64,000 nt of DNA from Alphaproteobacteria bacterium (GTDB lineage: Bacteria; Pseudomonadota; Alphaproteobacteria; UBA828). The DNA is taken from positions 512,001 to 576,000 of the forward strand of contig CBDCRW010000007.1 of assembly GCA_965221125.1 (NCBI GenBank), written 5' to 3'. The translations under genes were made by a program, and so were the position numbers. Positions 11,457 through 55,077 of the stretch are shown here, piece after piece. The notes beneath the pieces were generated by a model, which was given only the letters and a program-made list of their open reading frames with translations, had not been told where the DNA came from and ran no database searches. The stretch's first letter is position 1. The number at the start of each line of letters is the position of its first letter.

Positions 11457-11783
11457 GGCGCAACGGGCTCCAAGGTGTTCACCGACGAGTTCTGCGCGTA
11501 CAATGGGGTAGGTCAAGGCTTCGATCACGAAGCTGTCAACCACTCAGTTGGTGAGTAGGTCCCGGTCATGGTGGACACGAACGGTATCAAGTCTTTCTGG
11601 TCCATGCTCAAGCGGGCGCACAAGGGTACGTTTCACAAAATCGGCGCGAAACAGCTGCAACGGTATGTCAACGAGTTTGCCGGACGGCACAATGTGCGGG
11701 AGGCTGGCACCATCCGCCAGTTGGAGTCGGTGGTAATCTGTCTGGTCGGCAAGCGGTTGATGTATCGTGATCTGATCGCCTGA
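11457..11783 (+). pseudogene. IS1595-family transposase remnant (C-terminal third, internal stop)
   Basis: Frame reads GSKVFTDEFCAYNG..FDHEAVNHSVGE*VPVMVDTNGIKSFWSMLKR...KRLMYRDLIA, colinear with the intact transposase at 50643-51614. Confidence 0.9.
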
Positions 11784-19993: not shown

Positions 19994-20130
19994 TGCCAGT
20001 ATCTTTCGGGCATCCCGCTGAGTCGGGTCGCCCGCTGAATAGAACAGCCTGATTCCGGGTCACGGTAGCTCCTTGGCCCCAGGTGAATAGGCGGGGAGTT
20101 TCTCTTAAAATTTCCTGAGAGATACTGGCA
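19994..20130 (+). ncRNA. Unidentified structured RNA / leader, copy 1
   Basis: 17-bp closing stem (19994-20010 with 20114-20130, two G-U pairs), CCCG/CGGG hairpin, CCCGCU/GGCGGG stem, GAAUAGAACA/GAAUA internal loop, GG-UAGCU-CC apical loop. Same architecture at 52019-52144. Confidence 0.75.
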
Positions 20131-20187
20131 AGGCCCGACGCCAGGTCGGGCCAATGCCACTATACCGAGCGGGATGGAGGAACTAAA

Positions 20188-20700
20188 ATGCGAACCCCTA
20201 AAAAAGTCTCAGCGGCCGTCTTGTCAGCAGCGGCCCTCGGCCTTGCCGTGATGGCATGCCAGCCGCAAGGCATGCCTGCCGCGACCGACGCGACGGAAGC
20301 CGAAGTCGAGACCGCGCCCAGTGCTGAAGCCTCGGCTACCGCCGAATCTGCCGGAGTAATGACCGCAGCCGAGATCGCCGATCTATTCGCCGGAAACACC
20401 ATTATTGGTGTTCTGGACGCGTGGAAACTGCGCTGGGCCGAGTTCTTTTCCCCTGACGGAACCTCGAAGGCATTGCTGAGGTTCGAGGGCCAGGCGGATA
20501 TGCGGATTGTCGGGAAATACTACGCAAACGATCAGGACCAATTCTGTACTTTTTACCCGGAGCTGCCCGATCAGAAAGAGTTCTGCCATGGTGTGGTGCC
20601 GTTGGGTGATGGAACGTACCAGCAGGTCTATGCTGACGGCACAAGAGGCGGAATTTACATGCAAATTCTGGAAGGCGAGCAACTCGAAGCGCTCGAATAA
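20188..20700 (+). CDS. Hypothetical lipoprotein (possibly DUF995-like)
   Basis: Basic N-terminus, hydrophobic stretch and VMAC lipobox-like site, GGAGG RBS. Core MTAAEI..LF.GNT...FFSPDG...C......C. Lower GC. Confidence 0.75.
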   Translation: MRTPKKVSAAVLSAAALGLAVMACQPQGMPAATDATEAEVETAPSAEASATAESAGVMTAAEIADLFAGNTIIGVLDAWKLRWAEFFSPDGTSKALLRFEGQADMRIVGKYYANDQDQFCTFYPELPDQKEFCHGVVPLGDGTYQQVYADGTRGGIYMQILEGEQLEALE

Positions 20701-49422: not shown

Positions 49423-49573
49423 CGCGCCTTCGGCGGTCCTTTGATTATGCGCGCCTTCGGCGGCCTTTCGATGCCGCGCGCCTTCGGCGGCCTTTCGATG
49501 CCGCGCGCCTTCGGCGCGACCGAATTCCGCGCGCCTGGCGGCGCGACCGATTCCGCGCGCCTGCCGGCGCGAC
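49423..49573. repeat. Tandem array of about six degenerate 25-28-bp units (CGCGCCTTCGGCG core)
   Basis: GCGCGCCTTCGGCGGCCTTTCGATGCC repeated, drifting to GCGCGCCTGGCGGCGCGACCGATTCC. Confidence 0.85.
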
Positions 49574-49699
49574 TGTTGCGGGGCTTTTCGGAACCTCGTC
49601 AGCCGTTCTGCCCTATCTCACCTTGTCTCGGCTTGTCTCGGCTTATCTCGGAATTTTGGCCAAAAAAATGGGAATTACATACCTGACTTGACAGCCCCG

Positions 49700-49825
49700 C
49701 GCTGACCTCTCCCGCCCAAACCGACCTATATGCGCTGGGCGGGAGTGGGGGTTACCTCACCACAGCTCGTCACGTCATGCCACACCATGCCTTGACGCTG
49801 ACCTCTCCCGTCCACACCGCCCTAT
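49700..49825. repeat. Subterminal ~29-bp direct repeat x2
   Basis: GCTGACCTCTCCCGCCCAAACCGACCTAT and GCTGACCTCTCCCGTCCACACCGCCCTAT, each shortly after CTTGAC. Confidence 0.8.
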
Positions 49826-49885
49826 CAGCCTAGGGTGCGCTCGCTCTAATCCCCACCCTGTGGGCCGTAATCCGCATTTGCGGTC

Positions 49886-49914
49886 TTGACCCGAAATTCC
49901 TGTCACCGTATAAA
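49886..49914 (+). promoter_or_regulatory. Sigma70-like promoter inside the IS
   Basis: TTGACC-N17-TATAAA. Confidence 0.65.
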
Positions 49915-49918
49915 CGGC

Positions 49919-50133
49919 CCGGCGGGCCGCTCTGGTCCGTCAGTGTTTCGGATCCGATTTCAGGGAGAGTCATTCGAGCTCGATTCAGAATGGTGATCGG
50001 CGCGGTCGTCGCTCCTGCCCTTTTGGAGGGGCGTTCACCGCATCAACCCGCCGGTCTGGGCTAAGTCGGTTGGACCCGACCGCCCGTTTCCATCCCGCGC
50101 CGCCCTGCCACAGAGGGCGGCGCAACTCCTTTG
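49919..50133 (+). ncRNA. Candidate structured RNA (or small-peptide mRNA) between convergent promoters
   Basis: CCGGCGGG (49919-49926) pairs with CCCGCCGG (50047-50054). Further hairpins follow, including a 10-bp GCGCCGCCCT/AGGGCGGCGC stem before CTCCTTTGT. No long ORF. Confidence 0.4.
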
Positions 50134-50159
50134 TATAGAGGGATTCTCGCTCCCGTCAA
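50132..50159 (-). promoter_or_regulatory. Sigma70-like antisense promoter inside the IS
   Basis: Minus strand TTGACG-N16-TATACA. Confidence 0.5.
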
Positions 50160-50642
50160 CCGGCATCCCCGCCCGTTCTTAACCCTTTGCTTTTACGTTA
50201 TTTTCGTAGTTTTGGGTTCCTTCTGCCGCTGACCTTATCGCTCTCGCGTATATGACTTTGACGCGCCTCCGCCTCGCGGTGCCCTCGACTCCATCCATCC
50301 CCGCCGTGCCGGACGTGCCCGCGCTGCCCACGGTTCCCGAAATCTCCGCAGAGGCCGCTGAGCGCCCCGTCAGCGCCGCTGCCGATTCTCCCACCCCTCG
50401 CCCTTCAGCCGTCGAGCGCGCCTCTCCACCCGGTTTTCGTCGCGTCCGCGTCCGCGACTAGGCCCCGCGTCCCCATTCTGCCGTCCCCCTGACGGTCCGC
50501 AAATTTCTTTGCGGACCATCTGCAACTTTCCCCGTCCTGATCATTATATGCCTGGGTGCAGTCGGCTCTCCCTGCGCTCGCCCCTCCGCTCTCCCCGCGC
50601 GATTACCGCCAAACTTCTCAGCGGTGGCAGCGAATCCGGGGC

Positions 50643-51614
50643 ATGCCCCAAGCTGCACCCGGCAAGTTCTATCGTCAGGGCATCTCCTGGCCCGAACTGT
50701 TCGCCCGCTTCCCCGACGACGCGGCCGCCGAGGCGTGGTTCGAGGAGCAACGTTGGGGTACTCCTGGTCAGCCGTCCTACTGCCCGCTTTGTGGTGACAC
50801 GGAGCGCCTCCGCCCCACCCCCAACCGCCGCCCGCTCCCCTACTGGTGTGGCGCTTGTCGGTCGTACTTCTCCGTCCGCACCAACACCGTCATGCACCGT
50901 TCCAAGCTCCCGCTCCAGAAATGGGTCATCGCCATCTACCTCTGGGCCACCTCGCTCAAGGGCGTGTCCTCGATGAAGCTCCACCGCGACCTCGGCATTA
51001 CGCAGAAGTCCGCGTGGTTCCTCGCCCAGCGGCTGCGTGCCGCTTGGTCCGCCCCTGCCGACGCGCCGCCCCCGCCGCCCTTGTTCGCCGGTCCCGTGGA
51101 GGTTGACGAGACCTACCTCGGCGGCAAAGAGCGGAACAAACACGCCAAGAAGAAGTTGCGCGCCGGGCGGGGTGCCGTCGGCAAGACCCCCGTTGTTGGT
51201 GCGCTCGATCGCACCGCCAACCAGATCGCTCTCGCCGTGCTGCCCTCGACCGACCGTCCCACCCTGCACGGCTTTATCGAGCAGCACGTGCAACCGGGTG
51301 CCCAAGTGTATACCGACGAGGCCAGCGCCTATCAGCGCATGCCGTTCCCGCACGACGCTGTGAACCACTCGGTCGGCGAGTACGTCCGCGACCAAGCGCA
51401 CACCAACGGCATCGAGTCCTTCTGGGCGACCTTGAAGCGCGCCTACGCCGGCACCTACCACCACATCTCCCCCGAGCACCTCCACCGCTACGTCGGCGAG
51501 TTCGCCGCCCGCCACAACCTCCGCACCCAAGATACCGAGGCTATGATGGCCGAGGCGGTGGCGCAGATGATCGGCAAGCGCCTCACCTACAAAGAACTGA
51601 TCGGGAAGAACTGA
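50643..51614 (+). CDS. IS1595-family transposase
   Basis: Zinc ribbon CPLC...CGAC, FSVRT.T.M..S..PL.KW, KG.SS..L.R.L.I.QKSAW, VEVDETY, YTDE, HTNGIESFW..LKR, KRLTY.EL. Confidence 0.96.
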   Translation: MPQAAPGKFYRQGISWPELFARFPDDAAAEAWFEEQRWGTPGQPSYCPLCGDTERLRPTPNRRPLPYWCGACRSYFSVRTNTVMHRSKLPLQKWVIAIYLWATSLKGVSSMKLHRDLGITQKSAWFLAQRLRAAWSAPADAPPPPPLFAGPVEVDETYLGGKERNKHAKKKLRAGRGAVGKTPVVGALDRTANQIALAVLPSTDRPTLHGFIEQHVQPGAQVYTDEASAYQRMPFPHDAVNHSVGEYVRDQAHTNGIESFWATLKRAYAGTYHHISPEHLHRYVGEFAARHNLRTQDTEAMMAEAVAQMIGKRLTYKELIGKN

Positions 51615-51635
51615 CTTTATGCGAAGATTATTCCT

Positions 51636-51662
51636 TGTGGAAAACTTGTATTGTGTGGATAA
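51636..51662. promoter_or_regulatory. Two DnaA-box-like 9-mers downstream of the transposase
   Basis: TGTGGAAAA (one mismatch) and TGTGGATAA (perfect reverse complement of TTATCCACA), 18 bp apart, each followed by CTTG. Confidence 0.55.
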
Positions 51663-51752
51663 CTTGAATCGACTATCGTTGGGTTTTTAACGGTTTGTTA
51701 GACTCGAGTTTGGTCGAAGGTGTCGGTGGGGCCGCGAGGCTCGTCCGGTGTT

Positions 51753-51843
51753 TGGCGGAGGAGGTGGGATTCGAACCCACGGTACGGCACAGCCGTACAC
51801 CGGTTGCCTAGACCGGCGCCTTCGACCGCTCAGCCACTCCTCC
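51753..51843 (-). tRNA. tRNA with a serine-type body and atypical anticodon loop (AGG anticodon, C37)
   Basis: GGAGGAG/CUCCUCC acceptor stem, G73, encoded CCA, D-loop GG, CCGGU-CUAGGCA-ACCGG anticodon arm, 7-bp variable arm GUACGGC/GCCGUAC, GUGGG-UUCGAAU-CCCAC T arm. 91 nt. Confidence 0.93.
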
Positions 51844-51855
51844 GCGACCTTAGAC

Positions 51856-51885
51856 ACCATAACTTGATCGCGTGGCGGTCGTCAA
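51856..51885 (-). promoter_or_regulatory. Sigma70-like promoter of the tRNA gene
   Basis: Minus strand TTGACG-N18-TATGGT, ending 12 nt before tRNA G1. Confidence 0.6.
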
Positions 51886-51982
51886 CGCAACAGGTCGCCG
51901 GATACGCCAGATGTAGCAAGCCGGCGCCGGCTTGCTACATCCCGCCTGCCTCGTGAGGCGCATCAGTTCCAGCATCTAGCGA

Positions 51983-52011
51983 TTGCGCCCGCATTGTGCC
52001 TCCGTTACGCT
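51983..52011 (+). promoter_or_regulatory. Sigma70-like promoter for structured RNA copy 2
   Basis: TTGCGC-N17-TACGCT. Predicted start (~52019) coincides with the first base of the closing stem. Confidence 0.55.
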
Positions 52012-52018
52012 CTCCCTC

Positions 52019-52144
52019 GTCAATGACACGCGGAGCCCGCACGTCGGGTCGCCCGCCGAATACAACAGCCGCACGACCCGGCACGGGGTAGCTCCCCGCG
52101 CTTGGCGAATAGGCGGGACTTCACGCTATCCGTGTGTCGTTGAC
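52019..52144 (+). ncRNA. Unidentified structured RNA / leader, copy 2
   Basis: 16-bp closing stem (52019-52034 with 52129-52144, two G-U pairs), CCCG/CGGG hairpin, CCCGCC/GGCGGG stem, GAAUACAACA/GAAUA internal loop, GG-UAGCU-CC apical loop. Confidence 0.75.
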
Positions 52145-52213
52145 ACGGCCCGGCACCCGCCGGGCCGCGAGCCGCCCTATATCGGTCGGTTCCAGCGGGC
52201 AGCGGAGGGCGAC

Positions 52214-52588
52214 ATGTGGAAAGCCATTACTCTCAGTCTAGTTCTGGCCTTGAGTTCGGCTGCGCCGACCTGGGCGCAGGATTCTGGCAACGAATTCGTC
52301 ATCACTGTGCCAACAGACTTGGATACGCGCTTGTTCTTTGTGGCGGAGACGCTATCTCCCCATAGGGTGCAAGTGGGGTCGCCGTACAATTATGGTTCGA
52401 TGTACGAAGGTGAGCGGCAACGGCTGGTTCAATTCGCTCGCTGGGGGTGTCAACTCTATGGTCGGGATCGTCTTGCTTATGTCGGAATACAAACCAATGA
52501 TCAACGTTGTGACGAAATGGGTGCGGCCGCCGCCGAGCGCGATCCTCATTGCTACCACATCCACACCTTCGTGTGCGTTGAGCGGTGA
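52214..52588 (+). CDS. Hypothetical secreted cysteine-containing protein (IS passenger)
   Basis: MWKAITLSLVLALSSAAPTWA-QD signal peptide, GGAGGG RBS, four Cys, lower GC, 124 aa. Confidence 0.75.
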   Translation: MWKAITLSLVLALSSAAPTWAQDSGNEFVITVPTDLDTRLFFVAETLSPHRVQVGSPYNYGSMYEGERQRLVQFARWGCQLYGRDRLAYVGIQTNDQRCDEMGAAAAERDPHCYHIHTFVCVER

Positions 52589-52771
52589 GTCGAGTCTCTC
52601 GGCTCGACCTGATGCGCGCCAGTGTTGATGGCGGCGCGTCTAGGAGTTGAACCTAAAACGCCCTGGGGGACGTTCGCTCGGATTGTCAATCCGGCCTCCG
52701 GACCGCCGGAGATGGCGCGCCGCCATCTCCGGGAACCCACAATGTAATTCGCAGATCGCTCTGCTTCGCGC

Positions 52772-52784
52772 TAAGTGATTGATT
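52772..52784 (-). promoter_or_regulatory. IHF-like site next to the right IS end
   Basis: Minus strand AATCAATCACTTA fits WATCAA-N4-TTR, 5 bp inside the IRR. Confidence 0.5.
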
Positions 52785-52861
52785 CCACGTGTCAAGTCAG
52801 GTATATAAATCCCAAAAAAATGTCCTGCCAAACCGAGATACGCCGCATGGGAGCGCCGCAT

Positions 52862-52876
52862 GTTCTCTGTGTGTTC
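52862..52876. promoter_or_regulatory. Alphaproteobacterial LexA box
   Basis: GTTC-TCTGTGT-GTTC, an exact GTTC-N7-GTTC, intergenic. Confidence 0.55.
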
Positions 52877-53034
52877 CATGCGGGGAGGTCGCGGATATGG
52901 TCGTCTAAGGCGGCATCGCGGATGCTCACATCGCGGATGCGCCGGCTGCGTTTCGCCCGCCGCCCGACTATCCTGAACGCCCGCCGGAACGGTTCCGCCC
53001 GCGCCGCACAACCCCACAGCCGGAGGCCAGACGC

Positions 53035-55077
53035 GTGCCCCGAAGCGAAGCGCCATCCCGCCCAGCCGAGAACGATCCGCTGCTCCAGCCCTTCCGGCTG
53101 AAGCACCTCGTGCTCAGGAACCGCATCATGAGCACGAGCCACGCGTGCGGGCTCGCCGACGGCGGCATGCCGAGCGAGCGCTACCAGCGCTATCACGAGG
53201 CGAAGGCGAAGGGCGGGCTCGCGCTCACCATGTTCGGCGGCTCGTCCAACGTCTCGCCCGAGTCCGCGTGGCAGCTGCCGCAGATCAACCTCTACGACGA
53301 GCGGGTCGTCGAGCATTTTCGGCGGTTCGCGCGCCGCATCCATGCCCACGGCGCCGCGCTCATGTGCCAGGTGAGCCATGTCGGCGGGCGGGCCGAGGCC
53401 TACGCGGGCGCGGCGCTCGCCCCCATCGGCCCATCGCCGGTGCGCGAGACCCTGCACCGGGCCTTCGCCCGGGAGATGGACGAGAGCGACATCGCGCGGG
53501 TCGTGGCCGACTTCGCCGAGGCGGCGGCGCGCTGCAGGGACGGCGGGATCGACGGCATCGAGACCTTCGCCGGCGCGCACCTCATCGGCCAGTTCCTCTC
53601 GCCCGCGACCAATCGCCGCAGCGACAGGTTCGGCGGCTCGGTGGAGAACCGCTGCCGCTTCGGGCTGATGGTGCACGAGGCGATCCGCAAGCGAGTCGGC
53701 GATGATTTCGTCGTCGGCATGCGCTTCGTCATCGACGAGGCCGCGCCTGACCGCATCACCTTCGAGGACGGCCTGAAGATGGCCGCCATCTTCGAGGCAT
53801 CGGGCACCATCGACTTCTTCAACGCGATCTACGGCCGCATCGACACGGAGCTGAAGCTCGCCGTGGACTGCATGCCGGGCATGGCCTCGGCCGAAGCGCC
53901 GTTCCTGGCCCGCGCCGGTGCCTTCAAGCAGGCGGTGGGGCTCCCGGTCTTCCACGCGACGCGCATCACCTCGCTTGAGACGGCGCGGCACGCGATCCGC
54001 GAGGGCCTGCTCGACATGGTGGCGATGACCCGCGCACACATCGCGGACCCCGACCTGGTGGCGAAGCTCGCGCGGGGCGAGGCGGAACGGGTGCGGCCCT
54101 GCGTCGGCGCCACCCACTGCATGAGCCCGCTACGCCCGACCTGCATTCACAACCCGTCGACCGGCCACGAGGCTGCGTTGCCGCACGCCATCGAGCGGGC
54201 CGGGACGAGGCGCCGGGTGCTGGTAGCCGGCGGCGGGCCGGCCGGGCTCGAGGCCGCGCGGGTCTCTGCCGAGCGCGGCCATGCGGTGCGGCTTTGCGAG
54301 GCATCCGCGAGGCTCGGCGGGCAGGTGCTGCTGGCCGCACGGGCAAGCTGGCGGCGCGAGCTTGCCGGGATCGTCGAGTGGCGTGCCCGCGAGCTGGAGC
54401 GGCTCGGCGTCGAGGTCCGGCTCGACGCGCCCGTCGAGGCGGAGGGCGACGGCGCGCCGGAGGCCGATGTCGTCATCGTCGCGACCGGGGGCGTGCCCGA
54501 TCTCGACTGGATCGACGGCGCCGAGCACTGCACCAGCGTCCGGGACGTGCTCACCGGCGCGGCGGGCGCGGGCGAGGATTCGATCGTCTACGACGGGACC
54601 GGCCGCCACGCCGCGCTCACGGCGGCGGAGGCGATCAGGCAGGCGGGCGGGGAGGTCGCGTTCTTCGGCCTCGACGGCCACCTCGCGATGGAGATGTCCT
54701 ACGCCGAGCAGGTGGTCTGGCGGCGGCGCACCTACGAGATCGGCATCGAGCCCCGGCTCGACCGGCGCCTGGAACGTGTCGCGCGCGAGGGCAACCGGCT
54801 GCGCGTGACCTTCCGCAACGAACTCACGGACGAGGCGGAAGAGCATGAGACCGGCCGCATCGTGGTCGAGCACGGGACGCGCCCGGCCGACGCGCTTTTT
54901 CGGGGCCTCGCGGGCCGGTCGTCCAACCGGGGCGCCCTCGATCAGAAGGCTCTGCTCGCGGGGGAGCCGCAGCCGGAGGGCGAAGGTTTCCAGCTCTTCC
55001 GCATCGGCGACGCGGTCTCCAGCCGCAACATCTACGCCGCCGTGCTCGACGCCTTCCGCCTGTGCCGCACGATTTGA
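53035..55077 (+). CDS. NADH:flavin oxidoreductase (OYE family; N-methylproline demethylase/DgcA-like)
   Basis: LLQPF.LK.L.LRNRIMSTSH, AKGG.AL, H.HGA..M.Q..H.G, L..QFLSP.TN.R.D.FGGS.ENR, RPCVGA..C, CIHNP.TG, GGGPAGLEAA. Confidence 0.9.
   Translation: MPRSEAPSRPAENDPLLQPFRLKHLVLRNRIMSTSHACGLADGGMPSERYQRYHEAKAKGGLALTMFGGSSNVSPESAWQLPQINLYDERVVEHFRRFARRIHAHGAALMCQVSHVGGRAEAYAGAALAPIGPSPVRETLHRAFAREMDESDIARVVADFAEAAARCRDGGIDGIETFAGAHLIGQFLSPATNRRSDRFGGSVENRCRFGLMVHEAIRKRVGDDFVVGMRFVIDEAAPDRITFEDGLKMAAIFEASGTIDFFNAIYGRIDTELKLAVDCMPGMASAEAPFLARAGAFKQAVGLPVFHATRITSLETARHAIREGLLDMVAMTRAHIADPDLVAKLARGEAERVRPCVGATHCMSPLRPTCIHNPSTGHEAALPHAIERAGTRRRVLVAGGGPAGLEAARVSAERGHAVRLCEASARLGGQVLLAARASWRRELAGIVEWRARELERLGVEVRLDAPVEAEGDGAPEADVVIVATGGVPDLDWIDGAEHCTSVRDVLTGAAGAGEDSIVYDGTGRHAALTAAEAIRQAGGEVAFFGLDGHLAMEMSYAEQVVWRRRTYEIGIEPRLDRRLERVAREGNRLRVTFRNELTDEAEEHETGRIVVEHGTRPADALFRGLAGRSSNRGALDQKALLAGEPQPEGEGFQLFRIGDAVSSRNIYAAVLDAFRLCRTI

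Follow-up and report, generated by a model that had tools for sequence, protein, structure and literature searches.

An alphaproteobacterial IS1595-family element with mismatched tRNA genes in two exchangeable slots beside an Xcc1-like RNA

A 64,000-nucleotide stretch of an Alphaproteobacteria bacterium of the lineage UBA828 (assembly GCA_965221125.1, contig CBDCRW010000007.1, positions 512,001 to 576,000; the whole stretch is called the window here, and positions are counted from its first letter unless a contig is named) contains, at 49670-52813, a complete insertion sequence (IS) element with mainly RNA cargo. By its transposase domain, its ends and its target-site duplication it is a member of the IS1595 family. 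It carries two tRNA-type genes with mismatched anticodons, a serine-type tRNA with anticodon AGG and an 8/4 allo-tRNA with anticodon GAC, and between them a structured RNA related to sRNA-Xcc1 and a small open reading frame (ORF) for a putative exported protein. Comparison with related loci showed that the element belongs to a sub-lineage with a fixed layout, namely left inverted repeat (IRL), long leader, transposase, slot 1, Xcc1-like RNA, small exported-protein ORF, slot 2 and right inverted repeat (IRR), and that the two slots hold different irregular tRNAs in different relatives. From these comparisons we propose that the element carries a mobile, swappable set of mismatched tRNAs, probably charged with serine and weakly active in missense decoding; we give this reading a probability of about one half.

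Ends, transposase and insertion of the element

The element spans 3,144 bp between two 24-bp terminal inverted repeats located by repeat search, IRL at 49670-49693 (plus strand, GGGAATTACATACC...TTGACA) and IRR at 52790-52813 (minus strand), which are identical at 22 of 24 positions. A perfect 8-bp duplication, AAAAAAAT, read directly from the sequence, flanks them on both sides (49662-49669 and 52814-52821). The IRL terminus is of the GGGAATTATATAC type common to most related elements, and a search of the whole 4.58-Mb, 7-contig assembly found the element's ends in single copy; no IS1595-type ends were found elsewhere in the window. The transposase ORF (50643-51614, plus strand) is intact and takes up 972 of the 3,144 bp, and its 323-residue product matches PF12762 (DDE_Tnp_IS1595) with 149 bits against a cut-off of 27 (E = 1.1e-43). 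A zinc-ribbon-like N-terminal CxxC...CxxC motif is visible in the translation, and the zinc-ribbon family PF12760 gave a weak match below its cut-off (17.7 bits against 25.4, E = 0.0036). Relatives of the transposase reach 59% identity in genomes and 85% on a metagenome contig, and those on plasmids carry the annotation 'IS1595 family transposase'. In all these respects, the repeats, the duplication and an intact transposase filling under a third of the element, the first-pass annotation of the window had been right.

The empty site that the first-pass annotation had suggested looking for in relatives was found in G007, a genome of the same genus, where the two flanks lie 108 bp apart (...GGCAAAAAAATACTGG...) around a single copy of AAAAAAAT. 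The flanks lie 200-315 bp apart in three further genomes of the genus (G004, G014 and G002). Because the flanks are this close together in all four genomes, the tRNAs of the element are not native to the locus. The empty site, and the recurrence of tRNA and non-coding RNA cargo in related elements, bear out the earlier view of a mobile IS1595 element with mainly RNA cargo; the element is an insertion, and we count its mobility as shown by this comparative evidence. To the left of the insertion site, at 49423-49575, lie tandem repeats of 27 nt (three units) and 26 nt (two units). Contigs of the source sample have joints that skip 234-263 nt at these repeats and G007 has fewer units; the repeat number seems variable.

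A misassembly of the metagenome-assembled genome (MAG), in which the element or its cargo would stem from a chimeric join, is very improbable. The genome is in 7 contigs with an estimated contamination of 5.8%, and the two copies of another of its elements, IS-B (below), share a left flank that could reflect a join at a repeat. Contigs built separately from the sequencing runs X1-X3, which are three runs of one sample, probably the source sample, nevertheless bridge both junctions with 0 differences (the left at 49622-50984, the right at 52095-53300 and in others), and overlapping contigs of the same runs cover the whole interior, again with 0 differences; the AGG tRNA is covered by contigs of X1 and the allo-tRNA by contigs of X1-X3. 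The perfect duplication and the empty site in G007 likewise argue against an artefact, as do finds from other samples. Run X5, from another study and labelled sponge metagenome, holds pieces of a related element about 95% alike (93-97%), with matches to the 3' end of the transposase gene, to the structured RNA and the small ORF, and to the allo-tRNA region with the right repeat; one contig of this run exits the right end into different sequence, and another joins 51614 directly to 52007, that is, without slot 1. A separate metagenome contains L164, a relative with 85% transposase identity and the same layout.

Two tRNA-type genes with mismatched anticodons

Slot 1 is a variable module of 392 bp (51615-52006) delimited by the X5 join and by comparison with L164, in which a different tRNA occupies the position and homology to the window resumes at 52007. 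It contains a class-II 7/5 tRNA gene with a serine-type body on the minus strand (51753-51843), the one tRNA gene that ARAGORN called in the window and for which it drew a full cloverleaf. The Rfam tRNA model scored it at 50.7 bits against a cut-off of 29, in agreement with the complete tRNA gene of the first-pass annotation. The 91-nt tRNA has a long variable arm, pairing in every stem, a canonical T loop, G73 and an encoded CCA. Its anticodon AGG (plus-strand CCT at 51807-51809) reads the proline codon CCU and lies in a 7-nt loop, CUAGGCA, with A34 and C37. The gene is 78-83% identical to the four tRNA-Ser genes of the host and shares their D arm, acceptor pattern and variable arm in alignment and cloverleaf, with compensatory changes in the acceptor stem. 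Judged by the identity elements of tRNA-Ser, it has the class-II body and lacks a serine anticodon (NGA or GCU); with AGG in its place, the gene cannot be counted as an ordinary tRNA-Ser. Genes for tRNA-Pro (CGG, UGG, GGG) and tRNA-Val (GAC, CAC, UAC) are present in the host as well.

Also within slot 1 are a perfect palindrome of 16+16 nt (51910-51941), found by repeat search, and a promoter-like site, TTGACG-18-TATGGT, that runs on the minus strand from 51885 to 51856 and ends 13 nt upstream of the tRNA 5' end. The latter was the sole match of a consensus scan over 49600-52900, where shuffled sequences gave 0.8 expected matches, so that one site is at chance level; the four sigma70-like promoters of the first-pass annotation were not recovered.

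The stretch that the same annotation had described as hairpin-rich proved to be a second tRNA-type gene, which fills slot 2 (52629-52722, minus strand; mature form 52721 to 52629). The Rfam tRNA-Sec model matched 52632-52722 with 52.9 bits against a cut-off of 47 and beat the general tRNA model, and the stretch has a fold z-score of -5.65. Folded by hand, the RNA has an acceptor stem of 8 bp with a single C.A mismatch, separated by a 2-nt linker from a D stem of 6 bp that closes the tetraloop CGGU, then an anticodon stem of 6 bp in which one A bulges out, a variable arm of 8 bp and a T stem of 4 bp with loop TTCAACT; it ends in G73 and an encoded CCA. The anticodon loop UUGACAA presents the valine anticodon GAC (plus-strand GTC at 52685-52687). 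The gene thus has the 12-bp acceptor branch (here 8/4, of the forms 8/4 and 9/3), the long D stem with tetraloop, the longer anticodon stem, the long variable arm and the discriminator base (here G73, of G73 or U73) by which allo-tRNAs were described by Mukai 2017 (PMC5389517), and it resembles the allo-tRNAs of that source also in its non-serine anticodon, its similarity to the tRNA-Sec model and its company of irregular 7/5 tRNAs. By these structural criteria it is an 8/4 allo-tRNA; its charging with serine is a proposal.

Comparison with other allo-tRNAs argues for conservation of the fold. Against the allo-tRNA of L078, 13 of 32 pairs are compensatory. Six allo-tRNAs, aligned by fitting to the model, have 95.6% of their cells paired and compensatory changes at 24 of 32 pairs, where slid controls gave at most 8; pairing reaches 97.9% in the acceptor helix and 100% in the T helix, both with compensatory changes, and position 73 is G in all six.

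Our own models R1 and R2 were built because Rfam tRNA-Sec alone was neither sensitive nor specific here: a genome-wide search with it did not list the allo-tRNA of the window, and ordinary tRNA-Ser genes scored above its cut-off. A model from the slot-2 sequence matched allo-tRNAs in L078 (GAG), G003 (GCG), G101 (second copy, UAA) and G159 (GAG), with a weaker score for an allo-tRNA(UAU) at L238. No other allo-tRNA copy was found in the genome of the window, and no homologue of the segment made up of small ORF and allo-tRNA among the fetched relative loci. A model search of 244 genomes (sets of 101, 3 and 141, the last of which included G101 again) gave five matches of at least 60 bits, three of which (in the window, in G003 and as the first copy of G101) lie within IS1595 elements; among the strong matches that had not been used to choose genomes, one of three was IS-borne.

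The second G101 copy is part of a tandem (L246 8294-8468; G101:C1:2197293-2197467) in which 12 nt separate the allo-tRNA(UAA) from a following Cys-like tRNA of 74 nt whose anticodon loop has 8 nt. Mukai et al. describe 'polycistrons of irregular tRNAs', which this tandem resembles. Next to it lie an uncharacterised ORF of 189 residues and an ORF weakly like nucleoside 2-deoxyribosyltransferase.

Irregular tRNAs in related elements

Relatives were screened with ARAGORN and our own models in three sets, 80 loci kept of 528 from species-representative genomes, 29 same-genus loci and 80 loci kept of 590 from metagenomes; key loci were also searched with Rfam, which confirmed their cargo tRNAs as tRNA or tRNA-Sec. 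The recurrence of tRNA cargo that the first-pass annotation had named as a check was found in seven elements or groups of copies besides the window. The closest, L164 (85% transposase identity, duplication matching at 7 of 8 positions), has the order of the window, with transposase, tRNA, Xcc1-like RNA (94% identical), an ORF of 152 residues, tRNA and right repeat; its slot 1 holds a 72-nt tRNA(UCC) and its slot 2 a Ser-type class-II tRNA(GCG). L146, in the same-genus genome G020 (duplication TTTCAAAG), has a transposase, a Ser-type class-II tRNA(GUU) and an Xcc1-like RNA, and L078, in a Dehalococcoidia MAG (duplication TTGAGAAT), has a related transposase and an allo-tRNA(GAG). The genome of the window contains two identical copies of IS-B (55-57% transposase identity; duplication AATAGAAA, at the C5 copy only), which has a 76-nt Cys-like tRNA(GGA) between left repeat and transposase gene. 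Two relatives of IS-B carry their tRNAs in that same position, an allo-tRNA(GCG) in G003/L127 (duplication ATTCATTT) and two odd tRNAs in L062 (duplication CAAAATTG). Finally, L081, a related element on a 2.2-kb Chloroflexota contig that holds only the left end and shows no duplication, has two irregular tRNAs, one with an Ala-type body (G3.U70, A73) and anticodon GCC and one with a Leu-type class-II body and anticodon CGG. The bodies of the cargo tRNAs are mostly of Ser, Leu or Ala type, and where the body is recognisable the anticodon matches it in none.

Several tRNAs met in the screen were not accepted as cargo. That of L067 was dropped for want of confirmation by Rfam, and that of L214 for its poor cloverleaf inside the transposase ORF. 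The tRNA-Cys of L016, the allo-tRNA(UAU) of L238 and the tRNAs of L035, L037, L038, L042, L045 and L069 lie outside the ends of their elements, and the tRNAs at L168, L202, L215 and L243 were left out of the cargo count. ARAGORN calls at C6:916013, C7:261248, C7:897634, C4:555953 and C3:369163, all in GC-rich DNA, were discarded as likely false positives. The elements L045, L069, L035, L037 and L016 sit 45-700 bp from ordinary host tRNA genes, which are just outside their ends, and L238 and the element of the window are both at a AAAAAAAT-type target; there may be a preference for A/T-rich spacers near tRNA genes, a possible route of tRNA capture.

Such proximity enters into one alternative, which we consider unlikely: that the tRNAs are captured host genes that hitch-hiked by use of a more distant element end and are now drifting without function. 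Related elements often adjoin host tRNA genes (the five just named), the AGG tRNA is near the tRNA-Ser genes of the genus (81-83% identity), the cargo is sporadic, and some copies have defects such as a C.A mismatch, a bulge or odd loops. Against drift, the AGG tRNA is fully paired, with compensatory acceptor changes, despite 17-22% divergence from host tRNA-Ser, and the 24 of 32 compensatory pairs in the allo-tRNAs argue for selection on the fold. It is in the anticodon that the changes are concentrated; tRNAs captured at random would mostly be cognate, and no cargo tRNA with a recognisable body is. Moreover, 8/4 allo-tRNAs are not ordinary host tRNAs, no second copy was found in this genome, and L164 fills both slots with different tRNAs. 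Cargo of this kind occurs in about 3-4% of sampled relatives, yet across several sub-lineages and phyla.

The two IS-B copies (L105 1248-4705 and L106 1255-4712; G000:C7 at about 85.7-89.2 kb and C5 at about 3.4-6.8 kb) are identical over 3,458 bp. They share at least 1,247 bp of left flank and differ immediately to the right, a pattern that suggests either recombination at the element or a join made in assembly. More widely, transposases with 45-59% identity occur in MAGs labelled Alphaproteobacteria, Gammaproteobacteria, Rhodothermales, Acidobacteriota, Chloroflexota and Acidimicrobiales and in one archaeon (L051, in a record titled Thaumarchaeota archaeon MAG). Many of these MAGs look like host-associated marine samples, and the distribution may reflect wide horizontal spread or some binning errors.

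The Xcc1-like RNA and the gene that follows it

The structured RNA of about 126 nt in the first-pass annotation was recovered at 52040-52166 (plus strand), 47 nt upstream of the small ORF, with 119 bits in our own covariance model R3. The search for this RNA combined BLAST with a model built from 12 copies. The Rfam model of sRNA-Xcc1 (RF02221) gave the same segment 33.7 bits against a cut-off of 53 (E = 0.0033), below threshold, and the window RNA is accordingly treated as belonging to a family related to sRNA-Xcc1 rather than as a member. It shares with sRNA-Xcc1 a long closing helix around nested hairpins and the motifs AAUACAA and GAAUA, and differs in an extra GGGGUAGCUCCCC hairpin; IS-B and other related copies were likewise not reported by Rfam.

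Of the related loci, 11 of 80 from genomes, 4 of 80 from metagenomes and 8 of 29 from the genus contain a copy, and further copies lie in IS-B, in G003 and at two other places of this genome, one of them at 20019-20151 of the window; a search against plasmids gave no match. Across 16 distinct sequences, in an alignment that was fitted to the model, 93.4% of cells pair and compensatory changes occur at 11 of 24 pairs, far above slid controls. Genus-wide there are 73 copies in 18 of 21 genomes, at least 34 of them no more than 5 kb from a listed IS1595 transposase; the figure is a minimum, as 92 of about 134 transposase places were compared and some 42 of 33-36% identity were left out. On the strength of this fraction, itself a lower bound, the RNA is not only IS cargo.

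What follows the RNA is more constant in kind than in sequence. In 11 of 16 examined copies an ORF with a hydrophobic, signal- or membrane-like N-terminus begins near the 3' end or within 300 nt of it; these ORFs are mutually unrelated in sequence. No Pfam family is shared among eleven scanned cargo ORFs (the small ORF of the window and ten downstream of other copies), and the ten gave only a weak IalB match, a weak YccF match and one T5orf172 match. The small ORF itself (52214-52588, plus strand) encodes 124 residues with several Cys and a hydrophobic, signal-like N-terminus. It corresponds to the small secreted protein of the first-pass annotation; the ORF stands, and the signal was judged by eye, without a predictor. 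No known family was found for it in Pfam, a single homologue (53% identity) came from 5.8 billion protein clusters, and a search of 400 further genomes of the class gave none. In the alignment, a TAnnnT box is conserved about 45 nt upstream of the first helix of the RNA. The Xcc1-like RNA most likely acts as a promoter-proximal leader, or a regulator, of the exported-protein cassette that follows.

By eye, the invariant CCCGGC that closes the long helix (52150-52166) may pair instead with a downstream GCCGGG, which is present in about 10 of 12 aligned copies; the two mutually exclusive helices resemble a riboswitch-type expression platform. The window has a second Xcc1-like copy at 20019-20151 (plus strand, 81.6 bits), followed 36 nt later by a lipoprotein-like ORF of 170 residues (20188-20700, plus strand).

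Sources on sRNA-Xcc1 describe it as integron-, transposon- and plasmid-borne (Chen 2011, by title), as lying upstream of symE in Xanthomonas integron cassettes and as having many copies per genome in Xylella. Carriage on mobile DNA, a place upstream of a small gene and many genomic copies are thus common to both RNAs; here varied exported proteins follow, not symE.

Missense decoding or another role

In the mechanism that we propose, each tRNA of the element would be transcribed from its own promoter and processed like a tRNA, and the seryl-tRNA synthetase of the host would charge both with serine. Serine charging is proposed because this synthetase reads the long variable arm and the discriminator base and not the anticodon. 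Serine would then be inserted at a low level at CCU and at GUC/GUU, and the transposon would spread interchangeable missense tRNAs between genomes. The Leu synthetase also ignores the anticodon. The same is reported for the Ser and Ala synthetases, and allo-tRNAs of both kinds put serine at sense and stop codons in Escherichia coli (Mukai 2017, PMC5389517). By a crude count over 1,334 long ORFs, CCU is rare in this genome (3.4 per 1000 codons).

A private genetic code for the element was considered and rejected. Aligned with 75 relatives, the transposase uses GTC/GTT where valine is conserved and CCC where proline is, and serine is rare at those columns.

Several observations weigh against missense decoding. 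By the same count GUC is among the commonest codons here (about 34 per 1000), and the transposase itself uses GTC/GTT at conserved valines, as at residue 248, which is V in 74 of 75 relatives; efficient Val-to-Ser decoding would for these reasons be harmful. The slot-2 allo-tRNA has its acceptor mismatch and its anticodon-stem bulge. A34 and a pyrimidine at 37 are both unusual in a working bacterial tRNA, and the AGG tRNA has both. The tRNA cargo is rare: 3 of the 80 loci from genomes and 1 of the 80 from metagenomes have it, and the other genomes of the genus add 2 elements. The IS-B tRNA(GGA), the L062 tRNAs and the L164 tRNA(UCC) have no clear identity, and a Cys-type body such as that of the first needs the anticodon GCA for charging. 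Two of the five strong allo-tRNA matches (G101 second copy and G159) have no IS1595 transposase within 6-8 kb, and no RNA run was among the listed runs that hold the element. Lastly, six allo-tRNA(UAU) variants failed to translate in E. coli (PMC5389517).

Some of these points also fit a serious rival that we hold possible, if on the doubtful side: the tRNA-shaped genes would be real, selected RNAs without a decoding role that serve the element or its cargo. They might sit at the 5' end of antisense transcripts as modules of processing, stability or promoter function, serve as insulators or terminators, or be decoys for tRNA-cutting toxins. The geometry of the element suits such roles, as slot 1 points into the transposase 3' end and slot 2 into the small ORF, both convergent on the opposite strand, an arrangement also seen in L164, L078, IS-B, L062 and G003; orientation varies, though, and the tRNAs of L146 and L081 lie on the transposase strand. 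The very common GUC and a transposase that is not recoded likewise favour RNAs that do not decode strongly, since strong decoding would hurt, and irregularities at sensitive positions point the same way: position 37 is C in the AGG tRNA of the window and U in an L062 tRNA(GAC), L081 has C33, and loops of 8 nt occur in L062 and G101. What speaks for tRNA function is that the full architecture is retained (T loop, G73, CCA, acceptor stems), where a hairpin or promoter module needs less. As to toxins, symE, the gene downstream of sRNA-Xcc1 in Xanthomonas integrons, is a toxin gene; no toxin-antitoxin or nuclease families were found in the element of the window or in ten neighbouring cargo ORFs.

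Extended beyond the single element, the proposal of mobile missense decoders leads to a more speculative one. The IS1595 sub-lineage could be a horizontal carrier of interchangeable 'code-bending' tRNAs that give transferable, tunable missense translation or toxin resistance, an idea we put forward tentatively. The tRNAs would be anticodon-blind bodies (Ser, Leu and Ala types and allo-tRNAs) fitted with the anticodon of another amino acid, which seems conceivable. The two slots would be dedicated to them beside the leader RNA and exported-protein cassette, in elements that cross phyla sharing a habitat; this, too, we regard as somewhat doubtful. If true, insertion of the element would give the recipient heritable, specific missense translation, or resistance to tRNA-targeting toxins.

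Other features of the element and the genome

The 949-bp region between IRL and the transposase gene (49694-50642) has two 30-nt direct repeats, at 49700 and 49796. No convincing ORF was seen in it, no homologues were found among the fetched relative loci or in its own genome, and no Rfam match at E of 1 or less; an ORF at 50252-50461 has no Pfam family. Elsewhere in the window, 11466-11777 (C7:523466-523777) is a fragment of an IS1595-family transposase gene, 51% identical over 104 residues. The same genome has, at G000:C3:534997-535084, a gene resembling tRNA-Ser(CGA) whose anticodon loop is 6 nt long, one A short of the normal copy at C7:108417, and whose acceptor stem has an A.C mismatch; it is a pseudogene or else reflects a homopolymer error of the assembly.

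Relation to known systems and significance

The IS1595 family reportedly makes 8-bp duplications and has protein passengers. The element resembles the 'transporter IS' members of the family in its single DDE transposase with a zinc-ribbon-like N-terminus, repeats of about 24 bp that start with GGG, an 8-bp duplication and passenger DNA between the transposase gene and the right end. It differs in that the passengers are mainly RNA genes, in fixed slots that are refilled in relatives. No description of tRNA cargo in IS1595 elements was found in the open-access literature, a scope outside which fall most subscription journals, figures and supplements; the first-pass annotation's statement that no IS1595 element with such cargo is known to have been described holds to this extent, and is qualified by the known links of allo-tRNAs and sRNA-Xcc1 with mobile DNA. 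For allo-tRNAs a link to transposable elements was already suspected by Mukai 2017 (PMC5389517), where, in the available text, it consists of one allo-tRNA(UAU) pseudogene overlapping a transposon-related ORF, and where a valine anticodon occurs once only in the allo-tRNA data set. The allo-tRNAs here, in contrast, are cargo inside complete IS1595 elements with repeats, duplication and empty site, in hosts outside the groups named in that text, such as the Dehalococcoidia MAG. The tRNA-ProX/ProRSx system of Streptomyces (Schuntermann et al. 2023, PMC10404621) is a further natural mismatch of anticodon and amino acid, with deliberate missense decoding. It has a dedicated synthetase gene and places proline at other codons, whereas here no synthetase is carried and the tRNAs have Ser-, Leu- or Ala-type bodies; the available text of that paper contains neither 'transposon' nor 'mobile'. 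The novelty is thus one of combination, in that IS1595 elements that are complete, with proven ends and an empty site, carry exchangeable, mismatched tRNAs in fixed slots beside a leader RNA.

Natural tRNAs that join the identity of one amino acid to the anticodon of another are rare, and their origin and spread are unclear. The element is a vehicle for them with defined ends, a target-site duplication, an empty site and slots in which tRNAs are exchanged between relatives, and it makes the mobility of mistranslating tRNAs a testable question. Research on allo-tRNAs gains natural, full-length examples with genomic context and from new phyla, and sRNA-Xcc1 is widened from a virulence-linked small RNA of Xanthomonas to a leader-RNA family before exported-protein cassettes. 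To the biology of insertion sequences the element adds a transporter IS whose passengers are RNA genes.

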